Source: a virus. Taken from it: a DNA stretch of 64,000 nucleotides. Shown here piece after piece: positions 693-49,953 of the stretch. The stretch covers positions 64,001 to 128,000 of the IMG/VR virus record IMGVR_UViG_3300009151_000034; one strand, written 5' to 3'. Each line of letters opens with the position of its first letter. Position 1 is the stretch's first letter. A program made the position numbers and the translations under genes. A model generated the notes under the pieces. It saw only the letters and a list, made by a program, of their open reading frames with translations. It was not told the DNA's origin and did no database searches.

Positions 693-2582
693 TTAAATTT
701 CACATCCTCCTGCAACACATGCTAGTTCTTGTGTTCCTGTTGTCTTATCCTCATGTTCATTTACATTATACAAGTCGAAATCAACTTCTGGGAATGTCTT
801 GATCATTTCATCATATGCTTCTTTAGTCATTGGCTGATATGGTGCTTGTTGATAAATGGTGTCGTTGTAAGGTAAGAACGAAACGCCATTGATTTGATCA
901 AAGTGTTTATAGACCCAGGCACCAACTTCAAGCCATTCATGTTCACGCACATAGACAGTGATTGAAGGATTGTGTTCTACGTAATGCTCACCAACAATCA
1001 AGTAATGCTCTAGCTGATCGATAGCGGTCATTTCAGAAGCAATACGGCAATGTTCTGGTGACTTCATTGGGAAAGAAAATACCCAATTACTATCTTTCAT
1101 TACGTCAGTTTCATGAGGAACGCCCTGAGAAATCAAGAAATCAGATAGTGGGTCTTTCTTATCATTACGAACTGTTCTGATGTAGTATCGAGACATACGT
1201 GGATGAATACCAGATGACGAATCAACTAATTGTGAAACTGTCCCAGAGGGTTTCACGGTGGTAATTGATGCAGATGCAGGAATACCAAGTTTTTCTGCCC
1301 ATTCCTTGTTGACTTTTACGGCATGTTCACGAAGAGTAATAAACCAGTTCTTTGCTTCTTCTGTGGGATAACCAATAACAGGATGATCCATAATACCAGT
1401 TAATGAAACACCAAGTAAACGTTCTTCTTCAACATTCTTTTTCCAAACAGAACGAAGATAACGGAAGTCAGTTAGTGTGGATTGGAATGTTCCCATAATT
1501 GTTGCAAATTTAATTTTTGCAAGTAGAGTCTCTAAGGTATCTTGCTCACGGACAACAACCTCAGTCAAGTTACAAAATTCGTTTGGACGTAGAATAATTT
1601 CACCGCAAGGGTTTGTTCCGAAATCATAATTCGACTTACGGCGATCACCAAGACTCTTAACTTTCTTGATAGCAGCCACACGATTAACAATACCACGTTC
1701 ACCTGACTTAGAATCATAAAGAGATAGCCATTCTTTCATGAACGCACCAATATCAGGTTTTTCGGTATAAGCAGCAGAATTGTTAGCAAGCGCACGGTGA
1801 GCATCATCAACCCACCACTGACCATTCTTTGCACCACGCATACGATCATCAGAAAGATTTGACAATGAAATCAATGCACTACGACGAACACCACCAACTA
1901 CAACAACGTCGGCAATTTTGCACACAATATCATGGCATTCGATACTTGTTAGTTTTCTACCAGCAGCCTTACGGAAAATATTAATAGTAAATTTGAAAAG
2001 ATCATTGAGTGGAGCAGGTCCAGAAGAGCGACCACCAAATGTCTTAAGTGGAGCGCCAGCAGGACGTAGGGCAGTCAAATCCCATTGAGGCACCTGTCCA
2101 GCATAAAGAAGATTGATCAATTCACGATAAGAAGAAGCCCAGCCGATCTTTGAATCACGAACTTTAATTGTGGTTTCTGTTGGATGAAATTCTTCTGAGA
2201 CTACTGGTAGCTTGCTGACGAATTGGCGCTCAACAGAGAAGCCTAGGCCCGTGCCACACATTAAAATATACAAAGCCTCATCGAAACAACGAGGGTCATC
2301 TACGGCGATATATGAGCAATTATAACCCGCAACATTATCACGATCTAGAGCCTTACCAGCAGTCATAAGAGCACGCATGGAAGGCATAACTTCTAGGTTT
2401 ACGATAGAATTATAAATTTCATTCTTTGGAAAGGAATTGTCTCGTTCATAGAAATAATCGCAATATCTCTGAACAGTTTCTTCCCATGATTCGCGGCGAG
2501 TCTTTTCAGGAAGGAAACGGGCATATCTCGAAAGTGAAATATAGCGTTGATACGGATTAAGTCTTTGATTTTTAATACTCAT
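693..2582 (-). CDS. nrdJ: class II (adenosylcobalamin-dependent) ribonucleotide reductase
   Basis: TNPCGEI and VKPSGTVS motifs, C-terminal CVAGGCEI cysteine pair, no small-subunit gene adjacent. Confidence 0.92.
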   Translation of the reverse strand: MSIKNQRLNPYQRYISLSRYARFLPEKTRRESWEETVQRYCDYFYERDNSFPKNEIYNSIVNLEVMPSMRALMTAGKALDRDNVAGYNCSYIAVDDPRCFDEALYILMCGTGLGFSVERQFVSKLPVVSEEFHPTETTIKVRDSKIGWASSYRELINLLYAGQVPQWDLTALRPAGAPLKTFGGRSSGPAPLNDLFKFTINIFRKAAGRKLTSIECHDIVCKIADVVVVGGVRRSALISLSNLSDDRMRGAKNGQWWVDDAHRALANNSAAYTEKPDIGAFMKEWLSLYDSKSGERGIVNRVAAIKKVKSLGDRRKSNYDFGTNPCGEIILRPNEFCNLTEVVVREQDTLETLLAKIKFATIMGTFQSTLTDFRYLRSVWKKNVEEERLLGVSLTGIMDHPVIGYPTEEAKNWFITLREHAVKVNKEWAEKLGIPASASITTVKPSGTVSQLVDSSSGIHPRMSRYYIRTVRNDKKDPLSDFLISQGVPHETDVMKDSNWVFSFPMKSPEHCRIASEMTAIDQLEHYLIVGEHYVEHNPSITVYVREHEWLEVGAWVYKHFDQINGVSFLPYNDTIYQQAPYQPMTKEAYDEMIKTFPEVDFDLYNVNEHEDKTTGTQELACVAGGCEI

Positions 2583-3515: not shown

Positions 3516-3773
3516 TCAATTCACATTAAGCTTTGCAGGCTCAACAAAATAATAGCCCTGTTCTCTCAGATAGTCAAGTTGTTTTTCAGTTGCTTTGATG
3601 GCAGGATAAACACTGGATCGTTCATAACTAGGATTGAAAGCCCATAGTTGATATATTTCTACACCACACTTAAGAGCATGATACGTGAAATGACCTAGTG
3701 ATGCCTTTGAAAGATTTGGTATTTTTCCTTCTCTCTCAGAAATATGATATGCTTTTTTCGTATCTACCTTCAT
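3516..3773 (-). CDS. hypothetical protein
   Basis: 85-aa ORF in packed minus-strand run. Confidence 0.5.
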   Translation of the reverse strand: MKVDTKKAYHISEREGKIPNLSKASLGHFTYHALKCGVEIYQLWAFNPSYERSSVYPAIKATEKQLDYLREQGYYFVEPAKLNVN

Positions 3774-3966
3774 ACTCTCTTAAATTCTCATTAACTTGCC
3801 AAAATGAAAAGTGGTTAGCTTGTTCAGTTATAGAATATTCTTTATTATAAGGAATCCAAATTCGTTCCCTTATTTTTTCATTCTGTGTGTTTCTTGTCAT
3901 TTTCCATAACGTATCTTTTATATCATCATGTATTTTATATGCAAAAATACTTTTCTTACGCATCAT
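3736..3966 (-). CDS. hypothetical protein coupled to last QV mini-gene; possibly a degenerate member
   Basis: Start overlaps EDLNDA tail of 3956..4156; WQVNENL near C-terminus. Confidence 0.45.
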   Translation of the reverse strand: MMRKKSIFAYKIHDDIKDTLWKMTRNTQNEKIRERIWIPYNKEYSITEQANHFSFWQVNENLREYEGRYEKSISYF

Positions 3967-4156
3967 TTAAATCTTCCCTGACTTGATCCCAGATTTGATA
4001 GCTGACTTGATCTCCGACTTGATCTCCGACTTGATCGTGGACTTGACACCTGACTTGAATACCGACTTGATAGCTGACTTGATCCTCGGCTTGTTCACAG
4101 ACTTGATACCAGACTTGCCCGCTGACTTGTTTATTAATTTGTTTTTTAACAGTCAT
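3956..4156 (-). CDS. QV-tetrapeptide repeat mini-protein (array 1)
   Basis: MTVKKQ...(QVxx)n...EDLNDA, 66 aa. Confidence 0.7.
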   Translation of the reverse strand: MTVKKQINKQVSGQVWYQVCEQAEDQVSYQVGIQVRCQVHDQVGDQVGDQVSYQIWDQVREDLNDA

Positions 4157-4346
4157 CTAAATCTTCCCTGACTTGACTACTGACTTGACTCCTGACTTGA
4201 CTACTGACTTGACTCCTGACTTGAATACCAACTTGATTCCAGACTTGATCCTGGATTTGATCCCAGACTTGATAGCTGACTTGATCCCAGACTTGATCCC
4301 TGACTTGATAGCTGACTTGATCCCAGATTTGTTTTTTAACGGTCAT
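4146..4346 (-). CDS. QV-tetrapeptide repeat mini-protein (array 1)
   Basis: MTVKKQ...(QVxx)n...EDLDDC, 66 aa. Confidence 0.7.
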   Translation of the reverse strand: MTVKKQIWDQVSYQVRDQVWDQVSYQVWDQIQDQVWNQVGIQVRSQVSSQVRSQVSSQVREDLDDC

Positions 4347-4512
4347 CTAAATCTTCCCTGACTTGACTATTGACTTGATCCCCGGCTTGATCCCCGACAT
4401 GATCCCAGACTTGTTCACAGACTTGATACCAGACTTGATGCAAGACTTGATGCAAGACTTGATCCCCGGCTTGTTCACAGACTTGTTTACTAATTTGTTT
4501 TTTAACGGTCAT
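4336..4512 (-). CDS. QV-tetrapeptide repeat mini-protein (array 1; below ORF-track cutoff)
   Basis: Manual translation MTVKKQISKQVCEQAGDQVLHQVLHQVWYQVCEQVWDHVGDQAGDQVNSQVREDLDDR, 58 aa. Confidence 0.7.
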   Translation of the reverse strand: MTVKKQISKQVCEQAGDQVLHQVLHQVWYQVCEQVWDHVGDQAGDQVNSQVREDLDDR

Positions 4513-4702
4513 CTAAATCTTCCCTGACTTGATCCCAGACTTGATCCCAGACTTGATTTGTGATTTGAACCCTGACTTGATCCCCGACTTGATCCCTGAC
4601 TTGACCACAGACTTGATGCCTGACTTGATTACCGACTTGATACCTGACTTGTTCCCAGGCTTGATCCCAGATTTGATACCTGACTTGTTTTTTAACGGTC
4701 AT
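4502..4702 (-). CDS. QV-tetrapeptide repeat mini-protein (array 1)
   Basis: MTVKKQ...(QVxx)n...EDLDDR, 66 aa. Confidence 0.7.
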   Translation of the reverse strand: MTVKKQVRYQIWDQAWEQVRYQVGNQVRHQVCGQVRDQVGDQVRVQITNQVWDQVWDQVREDLDDR

Positions 4703-4886
4703 CTAAATCTTCCAAATTTTCCAATAATTGATTTTTAGCATATATTTTATTAATAACTACCATCGAAGAAAGAACCATATGCCTAGTATAAACAATAGTC
4801 TGTATTTGTCGATTTACACATATTGGTTCTTGCATATGCTTAAGAACATCATTATAAATTATTTTTTTGATTTTAGATAATACCAT
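4692..4886 (-). CDS. non-repetitive mini-protein sharing the EDLDDR junction (array 1 leader)
   Basis: MVLSKIKK...LEDLDDR, 64 aa from ATG 4886. Confidence 0.5.
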   Translation of the reverse strand: MVLSKIKKIIYNDVLKHMQEPICVNRQIQTIVYTRHMVLSSMVVINKIYAKNQLLENLEDLDDR

Positions 4887-4915
4887 GATATATGAAAGAC
4901 CTTTATACGACAGGA

Positions 4916-4952
4916 ATAAAAATGGGGAGCAGTTTATTTTTTGCTCCCCATT
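4916..4952 (-). terminator. intrinsic terminator after DUF6745-like gene
   Basis: AATGGGGAGCA/TGCTCCCCATT stem followed by T run on minus strand. Confidence 0.75.
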
Positions 4953-4968
4953 GATACAACCAGTTATT

Positions 4969-5850
4969 TTAGGTTCGGAACTCCAAATCCCGTAGTTCGT
5001 TTTCCTCAAACCCATATGTCCATGCGTTGGCTTGCAGGGCAGTTTTCATTTCAGGTGGCACAGGAATTGCGAATGACCTTCCAGTCCCACAAAGAACTTG
5101 CAAGAACTTTTCGGTGCCAATGTCGGGGATATCAACCTCTAGAAGTGTTCCGATCATTGGGTCTTCGTCAACATCGATAACCTTAGAATTCAATTCCTTA
5201 AGAATATGAACCCAACCAAGAATTTCACAAGCAACGCGGCGAAGTTCTAGATTATCTTGCTTCAATGCCTCTTTAGCTGTTAGAGACTTCTTATCAGCAA
5301 TCCAGTGCCAACGCTTACGATCAAGACGAACACCATGCCAAGCATATACTTTAGTGTCATCCATATATTCGATAGCAGGTCCATCTTCGCAATGTAGACG
5401 ATTCTGATCATCGAACTTGATAAGCATTGGGCGTTCCTGAATAATAGCCTCATCCTCATCAACCCAGGCCCAACCACCTTCCTTGGCATATTCAACTAGA
5501 CCGTTAATGATGCTGAGATCGATACCACAAACATCATTAAAATAAGAATAAAAGCTAATCCAAGAACTGTCCTGAGAACCGAAAATGTTTCCATTCATAA
5601 AGGAATTTACATCACCTTCGGGACGAATTGACTTGTAAATCTTATAGGCATCGTGTGGACCCTTAGCGTAATACATTTTGCTAGGTGCCTTAAGATTTTG
5701 CGTAGTATAACAAAGTGCAAGGGCCTTCTTAGCCTTAGCAAAATCAATAACATCGGTATTAAGACCAATCTTCAACCACTTGGCAAGATGCATAGGAATC
5801 ATTGCTTCTTGTTCTGGGGTTAGCTTATCGATCTTATTTGTAGCGGCCAT
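4969..5850 (-). CDS. DUF6745-like protein
   Basis: KLTPEQEA...KWLKIGL N-terminus, GSQDSSWISFY, RLHCEDGPAIEY..AWHGV, NLELRR motifs. Confidence 0.75.
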   Translation of the reverse strand: MAATNKIDKLTPEQEAMIPMHLAKWLKIGLNTDVIDFAKAKKALALCYTTQNLKAPSKMYYAKGPHDAYKIYKSIRPEGDVNSFMNGNIFGSQDSSWISFYSYFNDVCGIDLSIINGLVEYAKEGGWAWVDEDEAIIQERPMLIKFDDQNRLHCEDGPAIEYMDDTKVYAWHGVRLDRKRWHWIADKKSLTAKEALKQDNLELRRVACEILGWVHILKELNSKVIDVDEDPMIGTLLEVDIPDIGTEKFLQVLCGTGRSFAIPVPPEMKTALQANAWTYGFEENELRDLEFRT

Positions 5851-5877
5851 AATATAATTTCCTTTATGTTTCAGATA

Positions 5878-6240
5878 TTAGTCAGCAGCCTTACGAAAAC
5901 CTTCTGGTGTATACTCTCGCTGGCGACGAATCATATACTTTCCAGGAGGAACTAGAATGCTTTCGTGTGTATCATGTGATCGTAGATGATCGATTTTAGT
6001 ATCTTCTTTTACTAGAAGAAACATTTTATACAAATCAATGTTCTGTGTATTGCTTTTGTTAGTCACAGGTTCGAAAGCCTCAACATATTCAGCTTCCATT
6101 ACGTGATTATGCATAGTTTCAGAATGAGCAACCACGATATGACCATTCTCTGCATTTACAGGAACGATATTTTCTGGGAACTCGTTGATACGCACAATGA
6201 TAAAATCACCTTGCGCTGCCATATTTTTAAGAATCTTCAT
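5878..6240 (-). CDS. His-motif small protein of the type usually found beside DUF6745 genes
   Basis: QGD, HSETMHNH, HDTH, PGKYMIRRQREY motifs. Confidence 0.65.
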   Translation of the reverse strand: MKILKNMAAQGDFIIVRINEFPENIVPVNAENGHIVVAHSETMHNHVMEAEYVEAFEPVTNKSNTQNIDLYKMFLLVKEDTKIDHLRSHDTHESILVPPGKYMIRRQREYTPEGFRKAAD

Positions 6241-10084: not shown

Positions 10085-11071
10085 TTAATATCCTATCGCA
10101 ATAAAATAAACGTTACTTCCAGTTCCCGTAGATGATGATTTAAGCGCAACATTAGATATGGGACTTCCTGTTGTTGGTGCTGCGCTTAAATAAGCATAAA
10201 AAGCACCTACAACGCTTGTGGCCGTAAATGATAATACCGCTATTGGGAATGCTTTAGCAAAACTAGCATTTCCCGATGTTGCAGTATTTGCAGAAAACCA
10301 GCCCCAGTTCATTAACAGACCGTTTGGAAGATATGTAAATCCATTAGCAGATGTTGTCGATGAACCAGTTCCAAGAATCAACCCTGTATTGGTAGTAACC
10401 GTAACGTTGGAAGCACGAGTATCCCCGTTTACATCAAGTTTATATGTAGGAGTTGTTGTTCCGATACCAACATTTCCTGTGCTTGTGATACGCATTCTTT
10501 CGTTAGTAGAAAGAGTTCCACCAGTGAAGAAATTCATGTAGGGAGAAGCCCCAGCAGTCCCTATAGAAAGATTTGTTCCACCAGAATAAATATAAGCATC
10601 AGATGGGCCATTAATTGTCCAGGAAGATTGTAAGAATCCACTTCCATTTATACCAACATCGATATAATTTGGATTGCTTGATACTGGACCAGTGGTATCA
10701 TTTACGATAAAGTCGGCTGATGCATTATTGCCTGTATTAGCGTTCCATAAAACAGCCTCAACGAAATTGTTTTGACTTGAACTTAATTCTGCTATCGAAA
10801 GATCAACAGGATTCCATTGAATTTGAGCATTTGATGATGAGTTGCCTACCATAATAGATGTGGCATTTGCTAAAAATCCGTTAGCAGACCCAATCGTTCC
10901 TATAGCAACCGAAGTTGTAGTTACGGCAGGCATGTTCTGAAAAAGATTTGAAACGGTAATAGTTTGAACATTCGCAGTTGTAGTGGCATTGTAAAGGACT
11001 ACTACCCTGTCCGTTGAAGCCAGGGTAGTAGCTACGGTTAAATCACTAATTTTTTTAGCGTCATTTGCCAT
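10085..11071 (-). CDS. tail fibre-like virion protein
   Basis: ERMRITSTGNVGIGTTTP repeat and NGFTYLPNGLLMNWG C-terminal domain. Confidence 0.75.
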   Translation of the reverse strand: MANDAKKISDLTVATTLASTDRVVVLYNATTTANVQTITVSNLFQNMPAVTTTSVAIGTIGSANGFLANATSIMVGNSSSNAQIQWNPVDLSIAELSSSQNNFVEAVLWNANTGNNASADFIVNDTTGPVSSNPNYIDVGINGSGFLQSSWTINGPSDAYIYSGGTNLSIGTAGASPYMNFFTGGTLSTNERMRITSTGNVGIGTTTPTYKLDVNGDTRASNVTVTTNTGLILGTGSSTTSANGFTYLPNGLLMNWGWFSANTATSGNASFAKAFPIAVLSFTATSVVGAFYAYLSAAPTTGSPISNVALKSSSTGTGSNVYFIAIGY

Positions 11072-14903: not shown

Positions 14904-17135
14904 TTAATGTGTTCCCATTTGGCAATGCCATTTTTTTAACGAAAGTGCCTTGCGTGTTGGACGATTATGCTTATCTTTCATGGGTCCAGGCACCCCACTC
15001 ATTCTTGCACAAAAAGATTTTCTACGGTTATATTCCTTACTACCCTGTTTTATTTCACTTGGTTCTGTTGTAACAGCGGTCTGAAGATGCGAACCTGGAT
15101 GTTCTTTTTTATAACTATTAACACCTTTTTGATTTAAACCACCTTTAGGATTTTTACCTTCTTTTCTTTGCCATGCCGCTGATTCAGAAATAACTCTTTT
15201 AATAGTATCTAGCGTGGTATGTTCTTCTTTTTTTTGTGAATTTCTGATTGCCTCGGCTGTTGGAGCGCCCGGTTCTCCTGGATTACGCATACGTTTACCA
15301 GCCTCTCTTCTTTTACGAATATTATACCAAAGACCTCTGTTAGATTCATCAACAGATTCTTGAACAGTTTTAATATGCGCCATAATCTGTCGGATTACCC
15401 CAGGAGAAATATCTTTATGGCGGGGAACTGCGATTGTATGCGGGGAATTTGGATGTTTATATACTTCATGATCACCACGGTCACGATGAAGAACGTAACC
15501 TATTTGTTTCATGTGGTTGGTTACGTCTCGGTGTGATCTACCAATATCAAAAGGATTAATCTTTTCGTATAGTGATTGTGTAAAATTAAACGATTCGTTC
15601 ATTGTCTTTTTTTCTCCTAATTTATCAAGCATTTTTTCTGCTGCTATACGAACATATTCATCTTCATCATTTAATGCTTTATCAAGATGTTCTTTAGTTG
15701 CATTTGGATGTGATGCTGCTGCCATACGAACATTCCAGTTTTTATCATCTAATGCTTTATTTAAGTTTTCTTTTGTTGCCTTTTCATGTTTTGTTGCTGC
15801 CATACGAACATTCCAGTTTTTATCATCTAATGCTTTATTAATATGTTCATTTGTGACATTTTGATTTCTTATTGCTGCCGCACGAACATGACGATCACTA
15901 TCATCAAGTGCTTTATTGATATTATTTTCATTAGCATTAGGATTTTTTGCTGCTGCTATACGGACATCAGATTCGCCGTCATTTAATGCTTTATCGATAT
16001 GTTCATTCGTTGCTTTTGGATGTTCTGCTGCTGCTCCACGAACAAAATCATCTTTATCATCAAGTGCTTTATTGATATTTTTTTCAGATGCGTTTGGGTG
16101 TTTGGTAGCGGCCAATCTAACATTATCATCTTTATCATCAAGTGCTTTATTGATATGATTTTCATTAGCATTAGGATTTTTTGCTGCTGCTTCACGAACA
16201 TAATGATCTTTATCATCAAGTGCTTTATTGATATTTTCACTTGTTGCATTTGGATGTCCTGCCGTTGCTTCACGAACTTCTGGATTTTTATCGTCTAACG
16301 CTTTATTTAAATCGTCTTTAGTTGCATTTGGATGAAGCATAATGGATTTGCCATTATCATTATATACTCCTGGGTGTTTAGTATAAAGCAAACTCCCACC
16401 TTTATGTTCACCAGAAAGTCTCTTAGCTAAATCTTCTGCATGTTTTTTAAATCCTTCGTGGTCAAGACCATAGTATGAATCAACGGCATATGCTGTATGG
16501 CCTTCGTTGTTTATATGAGGTTGTAATGTTGCTCTTGCAATTTCTTCGCCTTTGTGATTATGAAGATATGCAACAACAGTGCCATGTTTTGTTTCTTGTT
16601 GTAGATAATGCCTATTGATACCCGTATGGACATTTTTACAAGAACTATTTTCCCACGACTGTTCGGGGGCAGTCTGATTACGAATACCCGCCCCCGATCT
16701 TGTAATTCTAACACTTAAACCTGTTTGTTTCTTGCCTTGTCTGGTGCTGTCATTTGCAAATCCATTAATAAGTTGACTTGGCGCTTTTGATTTTGTAAGA
16801 ATTCCGCCAATTTTTACTTTTCTTCCATATTTGTCTGTTGTTTGACCTGCCCTATAATCGTCGGATTCAATATTTTGGCCGATGTGACGCTCTACTGCTT
16901 TATGTATTTCAGACTTATCGACAGTCCCAGAAAGAGGTTCTGATATTTCATCATTACCTTTGCCGAAAAAATGATCCGTGGCTGCTACTGCTTTTGGGTC
17001 ACGTTCCCATGTAGAAGCTTCTTTTTCTTCGGCTGGTGTAAGTTTCTCAAGAAGAGGCACAGTATTTACCGTAGAACTTGCCAATTGTTTTTGTTGGTTA
17101 GAAATAAACAGTGTCGCAAGTTCTACGGTATTCAT
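14904..17135 (-). CDS. multidomain protein: HEAT-like repeats + HicA-like domain + basic C-terminal phage domain
   Basis: About nine 26-aa repeats; GYVLHRDRGDHEVYKHP..IAVPRHKDISPG; AAWQRKEGKNPKGGLN..RRKSFCARM. Confidence 0.75.
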   Translation of the reverse strand: MNTVELATLFISNQQKQLASSTVNTVPLLEKLTPAEEKEASTWERDPKAVAATDHFFGKGNDEISEPLSGTVDKSEIHKAVERHIGQNIESDDYRAGQTTDKYGRKVKIGGILTKSKAPSQLINGFANDSTRQGKKQTGLSVRITRSGAGIRNQTAPEQSWENSSCKNVHTGINRHYLQQETKHGTVVAYLHNHKGEEIARATLQPHINNEGHTAYAVDSYYGLDHEGFKKHAEDLAKRLSGEHKGGSLLYTKHPGVYNDNGKSIMLHPNATKDDLNKALDDKNPEVREATAGHPNATSENINKALDDKDHYVREAAAKNPNANENHINKALDDKDDNVRLAATKHPNASEKNINKALDDKDDFVRGAAAEHPKATNEHIDKALNDGESDVRIAAAKNPNANENNINKALDDSDRHVRAAAIRNQNVTNEHINKALDDKNWNVRMAATKHEKATKENLNKALDDKNWNVRMAAASHPNATKEHLDKALNDEDEYVRIAAEKMLDKLGEKKTMNESFNFTQSLYEKINPFDIGRSHRDVTNHMKQIGYVLHRDRGDHEVYKHPNSPHTIAVPRHKDISPGVIRQIMAHIKTVQESVDESNRGLWYNIRKRREAGKRMRNPGEPGAPTAEAIRNSQKKEEHTTLDTIKRVISESAAWQRKEGKNPKGGLNQKGVNSYKKEHPGSHLQTAVTTEPSEIKQGSKEYNRRKSFCARMSGVPGPMKDKHNRPTRKALSLKKWHCQMGTH
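15620..16340 (-). repeat. 78-bp coding repeat (26-aa HEAT-like units)
   Basis: HPNAT.E.INKALDD....VR.AA repeated. Confidence 0.9.
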
Positions 17136-43445: not shown

Positions 43446-43748
43446 TCAAGCTAAATCTTCCTGGACTTGATTATCGACTTGATCCCAGGCTTGATCCCAG
43501 ACTTGATTATCGACTTGATCCCAGACTTGATCCCAGACTTGACTCCTGACTTGATCCCAAACTTGATCCATGACTTGTTTTTTGACTTGATCCCAGACTT
43601 GATCCCTGACTTGATGTAGGACTTGATACTGGGTTCGATTTCTGACTTGAACATTAACTTGATCGCTGACTTTATCCCAGACTTGATTCCAGACTTGAAT
43701 TTTAGCTTGATAACTAATTTGATTACTAATTTGATTTTTAACAGTCAT
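43446..43748 (-). CDS. QV-tetrapeptide repeat protein (array 2)
   Basis: MTVKNQ...(QVxx)n...EDLA, 100 aa. Confidence 0.7.
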   Translation of the reverse strand: MTVKNQISNQISYQAKIQVWNQVWDKVSDQVNVQVRNRTQYQVLHQVRDQVWDQVKKQVMDQVWDQVRSQVWDQVWDQVDNQVWDQAWDQVDNQVQEDLA

Positions 43749-43914
43749 CTAAATCTTCCCTGACTTGATCCCAGACTTGATCTCTGACTTGAATACCAAC
43801 TTGATTCCAGACTTGTTTCCAGACTTGTTGCATGACTTGATCTCTGACTTTATCACAAACTTGAACCCCGACTTTATCATAAACTTTATCACAGACTTGA
43901 ATGTTATCAGTCAT
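43738..43914 (-). CDS. QV-tetrapeptide repeat mini-protein (array 2; not in ORF track)
   Basis: MTDNIQVCDKVYDKVGVQVCDKVRDQVMQQVWKQVWNQVGIQVRDQVWDQVREDLDDC, 58 aa. Confidence 0.7.
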   Translation of the reverse strand: MTDNIQVCDKVYDKVGVQVCDKVRDQVMQQVWKQVWNQVGIQVRDQVWDQVREDLDDC

Positions 43915-44083
43915 TTAAATCTTCCCAGACTTGATCGTTGACTTGATCCCTGACTTGAATACCAACTTGATTCCAGACTTGTTTCCAGGCTTGATGTAGG
44001 ACTTGCCTGCTGACTTGTTGATTGTCAACTTGATCCCAGGCTTGAATTTTAGCTTGATAACTAATTTGTTTTTTAACAGTCAT
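43907..44083 (-). CDS. QV-tetrapeptide repeat mini-protein (array 2; not in ORF track)
   Basis: MTVKKQISYQAKIQAWDQVDNQQVSRQVLHQAWKQVWNQVGIQVRDQVNDQVWEDLND, 58 aa. Confidence 0.7.
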   Translation of the reverse strand: MTVKKQISYQAKIQAWDQVDNQQVSRQVLHQAWKQVWNQVGIQVRDQVNDQVWEDLND

Positions 44084-44267
44084 CTAAATCTTCCTGGACT
44101 TGATCCCGGATTTGATCCCTGACTTGATCGCTGACTTGTTCCCTGACTTGATTCCAGACTTGATGTAGGACTTGATACTGGGTTCGATTTCTGACTTGAA
44201 CATTAACTTGATCGCTGACTTGTTCCCTGACTTGATCATGAATATCATAATTAAATTTATTATACAT
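44073..44267 (-). CDS. QV-tetrapeptide repeat mini-protein (array 2)
   Basis: MYNKFNYDIHDQVREQV...EDLDDC, 64 aa. Confidence 0.65.
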   Translation of the reverse strand: MYNKFNYDIHDQVREQVSDQVNVQVRNRTQYQVLHQVWNQVREQVSDQVRDQIRDQVQEDLDDC

Positions 44268-44421
44268 CTTCGTCGGCGGATAGAACATTTTTGACTGTAT
44301 CTTTAATAACTTTCAAAAGACCTATAGAAGCAAAATGGCGCATAGCCTCATCATCAAGATCAAGTGTTAGAGTAGCACCACCATCATCATGATCCTGGCA
44401 GTCAACAACTTCAATTTTCAT
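44260..44421 (-). CDS. small hypothetical protein
   Basis: MKIEVVDCQDHDDGGATLTLDLD..., 53 aa, GGGAG RBS. Confidence 0.55.
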   Translation of the reverse strand: MKIEVVDCQDHDDGGATLTLDLDDEAMRHFASIGLLKVIKDTVKNVLSADEDV

Positions 44422-44422
44422 T

Positions 44423-44782
44423 TCACAATCTCCCTAAACATTCTTTAAATTCTTCTGGTAAAATTACATTGTTTGGCACATTCTTAAACATCCATGCGAT
44501 TTCGTGAGGCTTATAACCAGAGAGGCCAGTCCCGACAGCAGTAAGAATGAACCGTAGATCAGGATTATCATACGAAAATTGGATAAAGATGTCAACATAT
44601 TTTTTGATCTCTGTTAATGGTAAAGTATTGATTTTATTATCTTTTGTCGGGATTGCATAGCTGTTACCCTGTAGACCAACACCCTGACCATAGATAGCGC
44701 CATGATACTTCTTAGCAAAAAGTGCGGCACCTTTACCGTGCCTTCCGGCTGTGTTGGAACCGAAAGTGAAAATATCACGCAT
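44423..44782 (-). CDS. macrodomain-like phage protein
   Basis: FTFGSNTAGRHGKGAA, SYAIPTK, TAVGTGLSG. Confidence 0.75.
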   Translation of the reverse strand: MRDIFTFGSNTAGRHGKGAALFAKKYHGAIYGQGVGLQGNSYAIPTKDNKINTLPLTEIKKYVDIFIQFSYDNPDLRFILTAVGTGLSGYKPHEIAWMFKNVPNNVILPEEFKECLGRL

Positions 44783-44951
44783 AATTTAAATCCTCTTTTA
44801 CTTGATTTATGACTTGAACCCCGATTTGACCATAAACTTGATCCCAGACTTGATCCCTGACTTGTTCATAGACTTGTTCATAGACTTGATCCCCGGCTTG
44901 ACCCCCGACCTGATCCCTGACTTGATACTTGACTTGTTTTTTAACGGTCAT
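44775..44951 (-). CDS. QV-tetrapeptide repeat mini-protein (not in ORF track)
   Basis: MTVKKQVKYQVRDQVGGQAGDQVYEQVYEQVRDQVWDQVYGQIGVQVINQVKEDLNYA, 58 aa. Confidence 0.7.
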   Translation of the reverse strand: MTVKKQVKYQVRDQVGGQAGDQVYEQVYEQVRDQVWDQVYGQIGVQVINQVKEDLNYA

Positions 44952-45123
44952 TTAAATCTTCCCAGACTTGACTTGAGGCTTTATCAATAATTTCACGGTT
45001 GACTTTATAACTGACCGGATCATTGGCTTGGCCCCAGATTTCATATTTGGCTTGATTACAAATATGATCATAGAATTGAATGTTGACTTGTTTTGTGATT
45101 TTAATTTTATCTACAATAGTCAT
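44941..45123 (-). CDS. diverged QV-family mini-protein
   Basis: Residual 4-aa period, ends QVWEDLNDR. Confidence 0.6.
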   Translation of the reverse strand: MTIVDKIKITKQVNIQFYDHICNQAKYEIWGQANDPVSYKVNREIIDKASSQVWEDLNDR

Positions 45124-45302
45124 AGAAACTTTAAATCTTCATCCAATTGAAATCTTAGATGCACCTTATATTGATTAAATACTATATCTTCAACTTCTCC
45201 CCATATAACAAAAGAAATGTGTTCGGCATAATTTAAGTCCCAAATTTTTCGAAAACTTTCCCTATCTGTGTATGAAGCCATAATTTTATTTTTAACGGTC
45301 AT
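45120..45302 (-). CDS. diverged QV-family mini-protein
   Basis: Starts MTVKNK, ends QLDEDLKFL. Confidence 0.55.
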   Translation of the reverse strand: MTVKNKIMASYTDRESFRKIWDLNYAEHISFVIWGEVEDIVFNQYKVHLRFQLDEDLKFL

Positions 45303-45477
45303 TTAAATCTTCACCAATTTGATTCCAGGTAAACCACCACATATCACCCACAGAACCATCTGCTGGCAATAACATAGTAATTTCATAAGGATAAACATCA
45401 CTATAATATTTTTCTTGACATCGATAACGACAATCCCGCCATACATCTTTTTTTATTTTATCTATAAGTTTATTCAT
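45292..45477 (-). CDS. diverged QV-family mini-protein
   Basis: Ends WNQIGEDLNDR. Confidence 0.55.
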   Translation of the reverse strand: MNKLIDKIKKDVWRDCRYRCQEKYYSDVYPYEITMLLPADGSVGDMWWFTWNQIGEDLNDR

Positions 45478-49506: not shown

Positions 49507-49953
49507 TCAAGAATTTTTTTCAGCCTCGACGCAGAATTCTTCACGACTGCCACGGCTCAACTCAGACCAGGGCAAAAAATTGAGCAAAGATTTGGCATGA
49601 AGAGCACGACCAGCAGTTTCACGGTCAGACATTACCACGATGGTTTTTGAAGAAGTAGGTGCAGGAATGGGCGCAGGAGTAGCCGCAGGCTTGATAGGTT
49701 CCATAATTCGCGCAACAGGAACCGTTGCCACCACAGGCATCACAGCAGTCTCCACCAGAGATGCGCGGAAAGCCTGCATTTCCGCCTTAGTGCGGCGATT
49801 ACGTTTGGTTGCAGTCTTAGCAGTCTTAGCAGTCTTAGCAGTCTTAGCAGTCTTAGCAGTCTTAGCAGAAGTTACAGGAGCCTTAGCTGCCTGCATTTCA
49901 ATCTTAGTCCGACGACGCGCACGCTGACCATTGGAAGCAACACCACGAGGCAT
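49507..49953 (-). CDS. basic protein with (AKT)6 repeat and duplicated RRTK.EMQA motif
   Basis: 9-bp repeat 49811-49864. Confidence 0.6.
   Translation of the reverse strand: MPRGVASNGQRARRRTKIEMQAAKAPVTSAKTAKTAKTAKTAKTAKTATKRNRRTKAEMQAFRASLVETAVMPVVATVPVARIMEPIKPAATPAPIPAPTSSKTIVVMSDRETAGRALHAKSLLNFLPWSELSRGSREEFCVEAEKNS

Follow-up and report, generated by a model that had tools for sequence, protein, structure and literature searches.

Chained genes for hypervariable Q-V repeat microproteins in a T4-like phage: a putative library of detached DUF6745 tracts

Tweety gp54 is, like Che8 gp57 and PMC gp51, a tetrapeptide-repeat protein of mycobacteriophages; in its repeat the third codon positions are invariant and variation falls at the first and second positions, a pattern read as selection for variation (PMC2884959). 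The protein acts in counter-defence against Phrann gp29/gp30, and this activity is tuned by repeat number (PMC9262239). At the level of gene organisation, T4-type phages have hyperplastic regions in which promoter-early plus stem-loop (PeSL) cassettes mediate the modular shuffling of small open reading frames, or ORFs (PMC2839356, PMC4122927). The locus considered here combines a repeat of the first kind with an array of small genes. It lies in a stretch of 64,000 nucleotides (nt), hereafter the window, which corresponds to positions 64,001 to 128,000 of IMG/VR virus record IMGVR_UViG_3300009151_000034. Array 1 (3736-4886, minus strand) includes four overlapping genes of 66, 58, 66 and 66 amino acids made of 12-nt units, each encoding a variable dipeptide and a constant Q-V (QV genes). 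These are the chained genes of CAAGTC-N6 units that the initial annotation had reported. A second array (array 2, 43446-45477, minus strand) contains eight more members of 60-100 amino acids, five of them clear QV genes, which brings the family in this genome to about nine clear QV genes and 14 members. The virus record is complete (149,097 bp, direct terminal repeats, 37% G+C), and T4-type genes, including gp32 and gp59, are present in the loci of relatives; the host of the arrays is a T4-like phage.

Comparison of the sequences reveals chained, intact and fast-changing microgenes that are homologous to a tract found inside DUF6745 proteins and that occur repeatedly in linkage with a repeat-less DUF6745 core. 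The explanation that we favour, with a probability of about 0.6, is that arrays 1 and 2 constitute a coupled library of freed DUF6745 tracts that dock in trans on this core. In this phage lineage the tract would have been relocated from the DUF6745 gene into separate genes. Each microprotein would then dock onto the repeat-less core in a predicted groove that includes the conserved W-x-S-F-Y motif, and one core with its phrog_27831 partner could be combined with many different variable helices. For the docking itself, the evidence is a structural model. By analogy, the most likely role would be tunable recognition of a host or defence protein. A broader proposal is distinctly more tentative: in several phage lineages a hypervariable repeat may have become a genomic repertoire of a dozen or more interchangeable helices, loaded in trans on one core and phrog_27831. 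One virus could then produce numerous variants of a single complex for recognition or counter-defence, and slippage together with cassette exchange would renew the repertoire, no dedicated diversifying enzyme being needed. The DUF6745 family is large and phage-centred and has no studied member, and the split form, in which the variable module is separated from the core, makes the system testable.

Microproteins and the internal tract of DUF6745 proteins

Microprotein 3, the 66-residue product of 4146-4346 (minus strand), served as query for the searches, the fold and the complex model. It matches 56 longer proteins (E values 9.5e-41 to 1.3e-4, 41-69% identity), and PF20530 (DUF6745, also phrog_31813) is present in 41 of them; a length-matched search retrieved one short relative. 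In the fused proteins, an N-terminal domain precedes the QV tract and the DUF6745 C domain follows it. The window departs from this one-polypeptide layout: its microgenes are separate ORFs of 58-100 amino acids. The only DUF6745 gene of the genome (4969-5850, minus strand, 293 amino acids) lies directly upstream of array 1 and matches PF20530 (E 6.5e-29, 101.1 bits for a cut-off of 27) over model positions 7-200 of 206. It aligns with the N and C domains of 20 homologues, and at the tract site it has about 25 non-repeat residues, compared with a QV tract of 70-290 amino acids in the homologues. Judged by this homology, the microgenes encode the detached internal QV tract of DUF6745 proteins. 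The initial annotation overlooked this context altogether: the adjacent tract-less DUF6745 gene, the kinship of the repeat with the DUF6745 tract and the predicted docking. Fused DUF6745 proteins are annotated as hypothetical in Microcystis phage Ma-LMM01 and in the Mycobacterium prophage prophiGD102-1, and a literature search for DUF6745 or the QV motif found no relevant paper.

At least 350 viral contigs encode QV tracts, and most of the 80 that were fetched carry fusions of 360-540 amino acids. A search with the window protein yields 866 DUF6745 homologues at E <= 1e-10, mostly of 283-295 amino acids. Tandem short QV genes recur in several of the fetched loci (designated by L numbers), with 4 in L003, 3 in L018, 14 in L042, 20 in L054 (a 368-kb phage), 7 in L064, 6 in L067, 5 in L071 and 4 in L083. 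Head, tail and type of overlap are conserved within each array and particular to it. Short QV genes stand beside a repeat-less DUF6745 gene in L018, L064, L067, L071, L083, L084/L054, L085, L088, L090 and L091. The DUF6745 genes of the fetched loci fall into two classes, with at least 11 repeat units or with 0-1, and for every gene of the second class the same locus or the same genome also has microgene arrays. Moreover, a second sampling, made through the DUF6745 protein itself, provided five repeat-less homologues with DNA, of which four have QV genes nearby: L085 (DUF6745 96% identical to that of the window, 4 QV genes), L088 (68%; one QV gene in one count, three short QV ORFs in another), L090 (52%, about 20) and L091 (54%, 2). 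In the fifth, L087 (72%), the fetched locus is devoid of QV genes.

On a tree of 60 C domains built by maximum likelihood, the split state requires at least four changes, and the window clusters with L064 and L083 (support 99/99). The microproteins of these three begin with a similar head (M-x-x-V-K-x-Q-V), and the acidic tail of the L064 microproteins likewise resembles that of the window. Because of this grouping and these similar heads and tails, the split appears to be old in the window/L064/L083 clade and to have been maintained.

A second neighbour accompanies the core. The phrog_27831 partner gene (5878-6240, minus strand, 120 amino acids; PHROG match E 3.6e-9, function unknown) was detected by tblastn in 38 of the 91 fetched loci. 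Among the 11 loci with a repeat-less DUF6745 it occurs in eight (L064, L067, L083, L085, L087, L088, L090 and L091), and tblastn gave no match in L018, L071 and L084. QV tracts also join other domains in two proteins, P0046 and P0047, which have in common a C-terminal domain of about 60 amino acids; one of their N-terminal regions is named macro-type (O-acetyl-ADP-ribose deacetylase) by JGI. The tract thus seems reusable as a module beyond DUF6745.

The repeat, the junction and turnover of the arrays

Tandem Repeats Finder reports a period of 12 nt and about 60 copies. Across 115 units the CAAGTC half is nearly uniform (CAA 110, CAG 1; GTC 90, GTT 9, GTA 1), and entropy reaches 1.6-1.8 bits at unit positions 1, 3 and 4. 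In the rest of the genome GTC represents 13% of valine codons and AGG 5% of arginine codons, and GGG is also rare; this use of rare codons in the repeat suggests that the units are related by descent and do not follow the codon preference of the phage. For the second variable residue, codons ending in C are absent in the window (0/61 for the two-fold D, N, Y and H codons), compared with 17-29% genome-wide. In every lineage examined, variation is strong at the first and second positions of the variable codons and the synonymous third positions hardly vary. Other lineages use other hexamers for Q-V (CAGGTC, CAGGTA, CAAGTT, CAGGTT, CAAGTG), each uniform within its lineage. Since the hexamers differ and the dipeptide is the same, the constraint appears to act on the protein and not on a DNA-level motif. 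Taken together, the pattern argues for concerted evolution of a coding repeat with minisatellite-like behaviour. A comparison of synonymous with non-synonymous change, which the initial annotation had proposed, places almost all variation at non-synonymous positions of the variable dipeptide, and the system offers a clean case for work on selection or mutation bias in coding minisatellites.

The repertoire is large: 48 kinds of dipeptide are found in the 118 units of the window, compared with a median of 8.5 in fused tracts. Free arrays exceed fused tracts in median dipeptide entropy as well (4.19 versus 2.71 bits, Mann-Whitney p 5e-7, relatedness between loci uncorrected). The near-absence of synonymous variation is extreme in one fused tract, L023:3689-5284, with 60 units that vary at two nucleotides only (position 1, T/A/G; position 5, A/C); all six possible unit types occur, interspersed, a pattern which may reflect recurrent site-specific mutation or strong selection.

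Array 1 begins with a gene of 64 amino acids (4692-4886) that has a degenerate repeat and an EDLDDR tail and feeds the first junction. It is followed on the minus strand by QV microgene 1 (4502-4702, 66 amino acids), microgene 2 (4336-4512, 58), microgene 3, microgene 4 (3956-4156, 66) and a non-repeat gene of 76 amino acids (3736-3966) whose ATG lies inside the last junction. At every junction of the array the next ATG is placed 8 nt ahead of the stop, which gives an 11-nt overlap and a +1 frame. The junction was said in the initial annotation to combine the tail, a Shine-Dalgarno-like (SD-like) stretch and the following ATG, and this composition is indeed found: each junction holds the EDLDD tail with the other two elements, and QV genes 1-3 end exactly in the terminal sequence quoted there, with a variant (EDLNDA, ATGATG) in gene 4. 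A GGGAAG purine run occupies positions -12 to -7 of each junction start, and the long ORFs of the phage are enriched for AGGA/AAGG/GGAA at -14 to -9. Stop and start thus overlap, with an SD-like site at the usual spacing of the genome, as would be expected of a translationally coupled operon. The off-frame and opposite-strand ORFs of the array are open merely through the repeat, and homology sits in the QV frame.

The 149-kb genome contains 11 copies of the junction, all on the minus strand and within arrays 1 and 2. The exact junction pattern was not found in IMG/VR and JGI metagenome contigs. A search for related loci in IMG/VR with the single DUF6745 protein retrieved none either, and close relatives were obtained instead through homologues of that protein. 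In L090 a glutaredoxin gene that follows the array (10617-10862) starts with a microgene head, M-N-S-M-K, which suggests that junction-mediated joining reaches ordinary genes too.

The members without a clear QV repeat keep the head, a Q-x-x-E-D-L tail and a hydrophobic residue at every fourth position; to judge from these motifs, the so-called non-repetitive members are diverged members of one family. This applies to the 64-amino-acid gene, which has a 79%-identical orthologue in L085: it does use the common junction, as first described, but it is a diverged relative with the same head and tail and not the non-repetitive gene it was taken for. For the 76-amino-acid gene, Pfam gives nothing that passes the curated cut-off (a weak BRF1 match has E 0.009), and PHROG assigns it to none of its families. 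Two genes interrupt array 2, one of phrog_2072 (44423-44782) and one of 53 amino acids. The former (minus strand, 119 amino acids, E 3.5e-43, function unknown) has its start codon within a QV-type junction, and the product of the latter is acidic.

Turnover is evident when the window is compared with its closest relative. Between the window and L085, flanking genes are 85-88% identical in DNA sequence, compared with 68-78% for the arrays, which align in many registers. In spite of a 96%-identical DUF6745, L085 has a different microgene set: the number of QV genes differs, and five small genes are without counterpart in the window genome. Within the genome, arrays 1 and 2, at a distance of 39 kb from each other, have exact blocks of 33-39 nt with rare variants in common, and a 65-nt exact block is common to two genes of array 2. 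It is apparent from the sequences that 12-nt units are gained and lost in the library, that microgenes exchange blocks, also from one array to the other, and that duplication, loss or replacement of entire genes takes place at the conserved junction, which supplies each new copy with an SD-like site and a start codon. The initial annotation had anticipated much of this, namely an expandable library of variable peptides, diversified by in-register recombination with no dedicated enzyme in view, and an expandable and fast-changing library is supported by the recurrence of arrays in many contigs, the distinct set in L085, the exchanged blocks and the absence of any PF00078 match in the complete genome, control genomes giving matches. 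Diversification thus appears to proceed without a reverse transcriptase. Its other suggestion, that the peptides are decoys or inhibitors of host defence, found nothing direct in its favour. Decay also occurs: L085 carries a truncated microgene of 39 amino acids, and two microgenes of L067 (2793-3017 and 3748-3996) contain stretches in the wrong repeat frame, one running into the next head, which indicates occasional frameshift decay or fusion within arrays.

Predicted docking and alternative explanations

The model of microprotein 3 is one helix spanning residues 2-65 (predicted local distance difference test, pLDDT, 88), and the AlphaFold2 (AF2) model of the DUF6745 protein has a pLDDT of 92. 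DUF6745 has no match in the PDB by sequence or Foldseek, the best VIA-align Z being 3.9, so no function can be borrowed from a solved fold. A search of the ESM Atlas with the DUF6745 model retrieved only other DUF6745 clusters. One of them, cyanobacterial and with 72 members, is fused to leucine-rich repeats, an arrangement that fits a DUF6745 core bearing exchangeable binding repeats.

The complex model of the core with microprotein 3 scores 0.77 (runs 0.76-0.80), and the best of three controls 0.13. In the calibration, 58 of 80 solved complexes attained this mark, as did 2 of 110 mismatched pairs; the counts hold roughly, because custom alignments were used. The partner pLDDT is at least 83. 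The predicted groove is made up of residues about 85-118 and 25-30 of the core, and the predicted interface includes W25, Y48 and the W-x-S-F-Y segment (residues 97-101), which are among the most conserved positions. In the fused DUF6745 proteins W-x-S-F-Y stands immediately C-terminal of the tract, and the detached helix might therefore take the place that the tract occupies in cis. The model speaks for an association with an undefined register, as a periodic helix would give.

Several observations weigh against the proposal that the microproteins form a library docking on the repeat-less core. The 80 fetched loci came through QV matches, which biases their co-occurrence counts. The entropy comparison between free arrays and fused tracts ignores relatedness between loci. 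L087 has the core and the phrog_27831 partner without a QV gene in the fetched locus, and an 80-kb fragment, 49% complete, has 14 microgenes without DUF6745; microproteins and core are thus not strictly interdependent. Array 2 is located 39 kb from the DUF6745 gene, and a terminator-like hairpin (4922-4951, minus strand) stands between that gene and array 1. Finally, agreement in contacts among the three complex runs is low (at least 2%), which leaves the docking register undefined, and a long amphipathic helix may simply be easy to place in models.

Some of these points would equally suit microproteins that act alone, as small acidic helices binding or titrating host or defence proteins, with DUF6745 as no more than the source of the repeat. 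The distance of array 2, the fragment with 14 microgenes, the acidity of most of the products (pI 4.4-5.6) and the presence of QV tracts in proteins of different architecture, such as one in which the tract follows a macro domain, are all compatible with this possibility. However, the repeat-less core stays beside arrays in at least four separately placed lineages of the tree, the modelled complex of core and microprotein passes its controls, and nothing points to a host target, so that we regard independent action as unlikely, if far from negligible. It is improbable, by contrast, that the arrays are non-functional, decaying minisatellite-like DNA derived from the DUF6745 tract, with ORFs that remain open for lack of stops. 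All repeat frames are open, codon usage is atypical, relatives contain frameshifted or truncated units (the two L067 genes and the 39-amino-acid L085 gene) and L087 has none at all. Nevertheless, every unit keeps its ATG, SD-like site, conserved head and tail, and stop; the protein motifs of head and tail are retained despite differing overlaps (4 nt, 11 nt, 17 nt or short gaps); the arrangement persists over DUF6745 identities from 96% to 52%; and variation avoids synonymous sites, the opposite of neutral decay.

Two further explanations carry still less weight. The near-invariance of the hexamer in this phage, third codon positions included, could reflect a function at the nucleic acid level, either GACTTG sites at 12-bp spacing that bind a protein or a structured RNA. 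Such a function is very improbable given that other lineages keep the dipeptide with other hexamers, that a comparison with Rfam finds no family at E up to 1 and that homology is strong at the protein level; a DNA-level iteron was rejected on the hexamer and homology grounds. Hardly to be expected at all is a single polyprotein produced from the chained ORFs by programmed +1 frameshifting at the junction. Successive genes do lie in the +1 frame, and the A-run of the junction with its upstream purine stretch is loosely prfB-like. However, no slippery codon pair suits a shift to +1, a distance of 14 nt and not 3 separates the purine stretch from the stop, and a well-placed ATG is present at each junction, on which grounds a frameshift polyprotein was rejected. 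Moreover, array genes of other phages follow one another with ATGA overlaps, with 17-nt overlaps or across short gaps, and independent initiation is their common feature.

Regulatory context and comparison with known systems

The hairpin at 4922-4951, which follows the DUF6745 stop and precedes array 1, is predicted by RNA folding to form a stem of 10-11 bp followed by a U-run (-25.1 kcal/mol, z -4.0). It was missed by the consensus terminator scan, as its loop of 10 nt exceeds the 3-8 nt allowed there. Given this hairpin, array 1 may be transcribed separately or under attenuation. Scans of the region for sigma-70 promoters and terminators stayed at chance level (promoter-like sites against shuffled expectation), and the late-promoter motif TATAAATA was found near neither array. 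The region was without a match to Rfam (E up to 1), without a predicted tRNA and without a blastn match among cultured phages. In Pfam and PHROG scans the microproteins gave sub-threshold matches only (DUF4816, phrog_33514, phrog_5189), which were taken as compositional.

The window contains two other tandem repeats, a 78-nt unit in 9 copies with 71% matches (15633-16334) and a perfect 9-nt unit, GCAGTCTTA, in 6.4 copies (49811-49868). In L085 two ribonucleotide reductase ORFs (3623-6026) have intein-splicing matches. The 629-amino-acid ribonucleotide reductase ORF of the window (693-2582) found no counterpart match in the L085 comparison, in which the proteins were not aligned to each other.

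The fused DUF6745 proteins have the same 12-nt unit with a variable dipeptide and Q-V, the same invariant third codon positions, W/R/G/S and D/N/E/S at the variable residues, the same core domains and the phrog_27831 neighbour. They differ in that the tract of the window lies outside the polypeptide, each microgene having its own start, head and tail, and in that the variable dipeptides of the window are far more diverse.

PeSL cassettes likewise place a short conserved sequence beside many small, variable T4-like genes and coincide with gene gain, loss and replacement. The junction of the window, however, is situated inside overlapping coding sequence (11 nt) where a PeSL cassette has an intergenic promoter and terminator, and the arrays show no enrichment of sigma-70-like sites; the resemblance would be one of effect only. 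With diversity-generating retroelements (DGRs) the system has in common a phage-borne, site-restricted non-synonymous hypervariation of a binding-type protein. A DGR was rejected here: the complete genome has no reverse transcriptase, there is no template/variable repeat pair, and the adenines of the CAA glutamine codon are invariant whereas unit position 1 varies among T, A and G. If docking holds, phage protein diversity would arise from a multigene library of plug-in helices, unlike that produced by DGRs or by the swapping of tail-fibre cassettes.

As far as sequence comparison can tell, Tweety gp54 is the nearest analogue and not a detectable homologue, as gp54 has no Pfam match and hhalign against the DUF6745 alignment gives a probability of 0.1. 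Both systems have a 12-nt unit with two constant and two variable residues, G or W at a variable site, invariant third codon positions with variable first and second positions, and a repeat number that varies among close relatives. In gp54, as in the fused DUF6745 proteins, unique N- and C-terminal parts flank the tract. The constant pair of gp54 is A-A instead of Q-V, its repeat is internal to one protein and never split into microgenes, and its function was established through escape mutants, whereas the QV system is known from sequence and models. Should docking hold, the split arrays would provide a molecular context for gp54, the only studied tetrapeptide-repeat protein of a phage.

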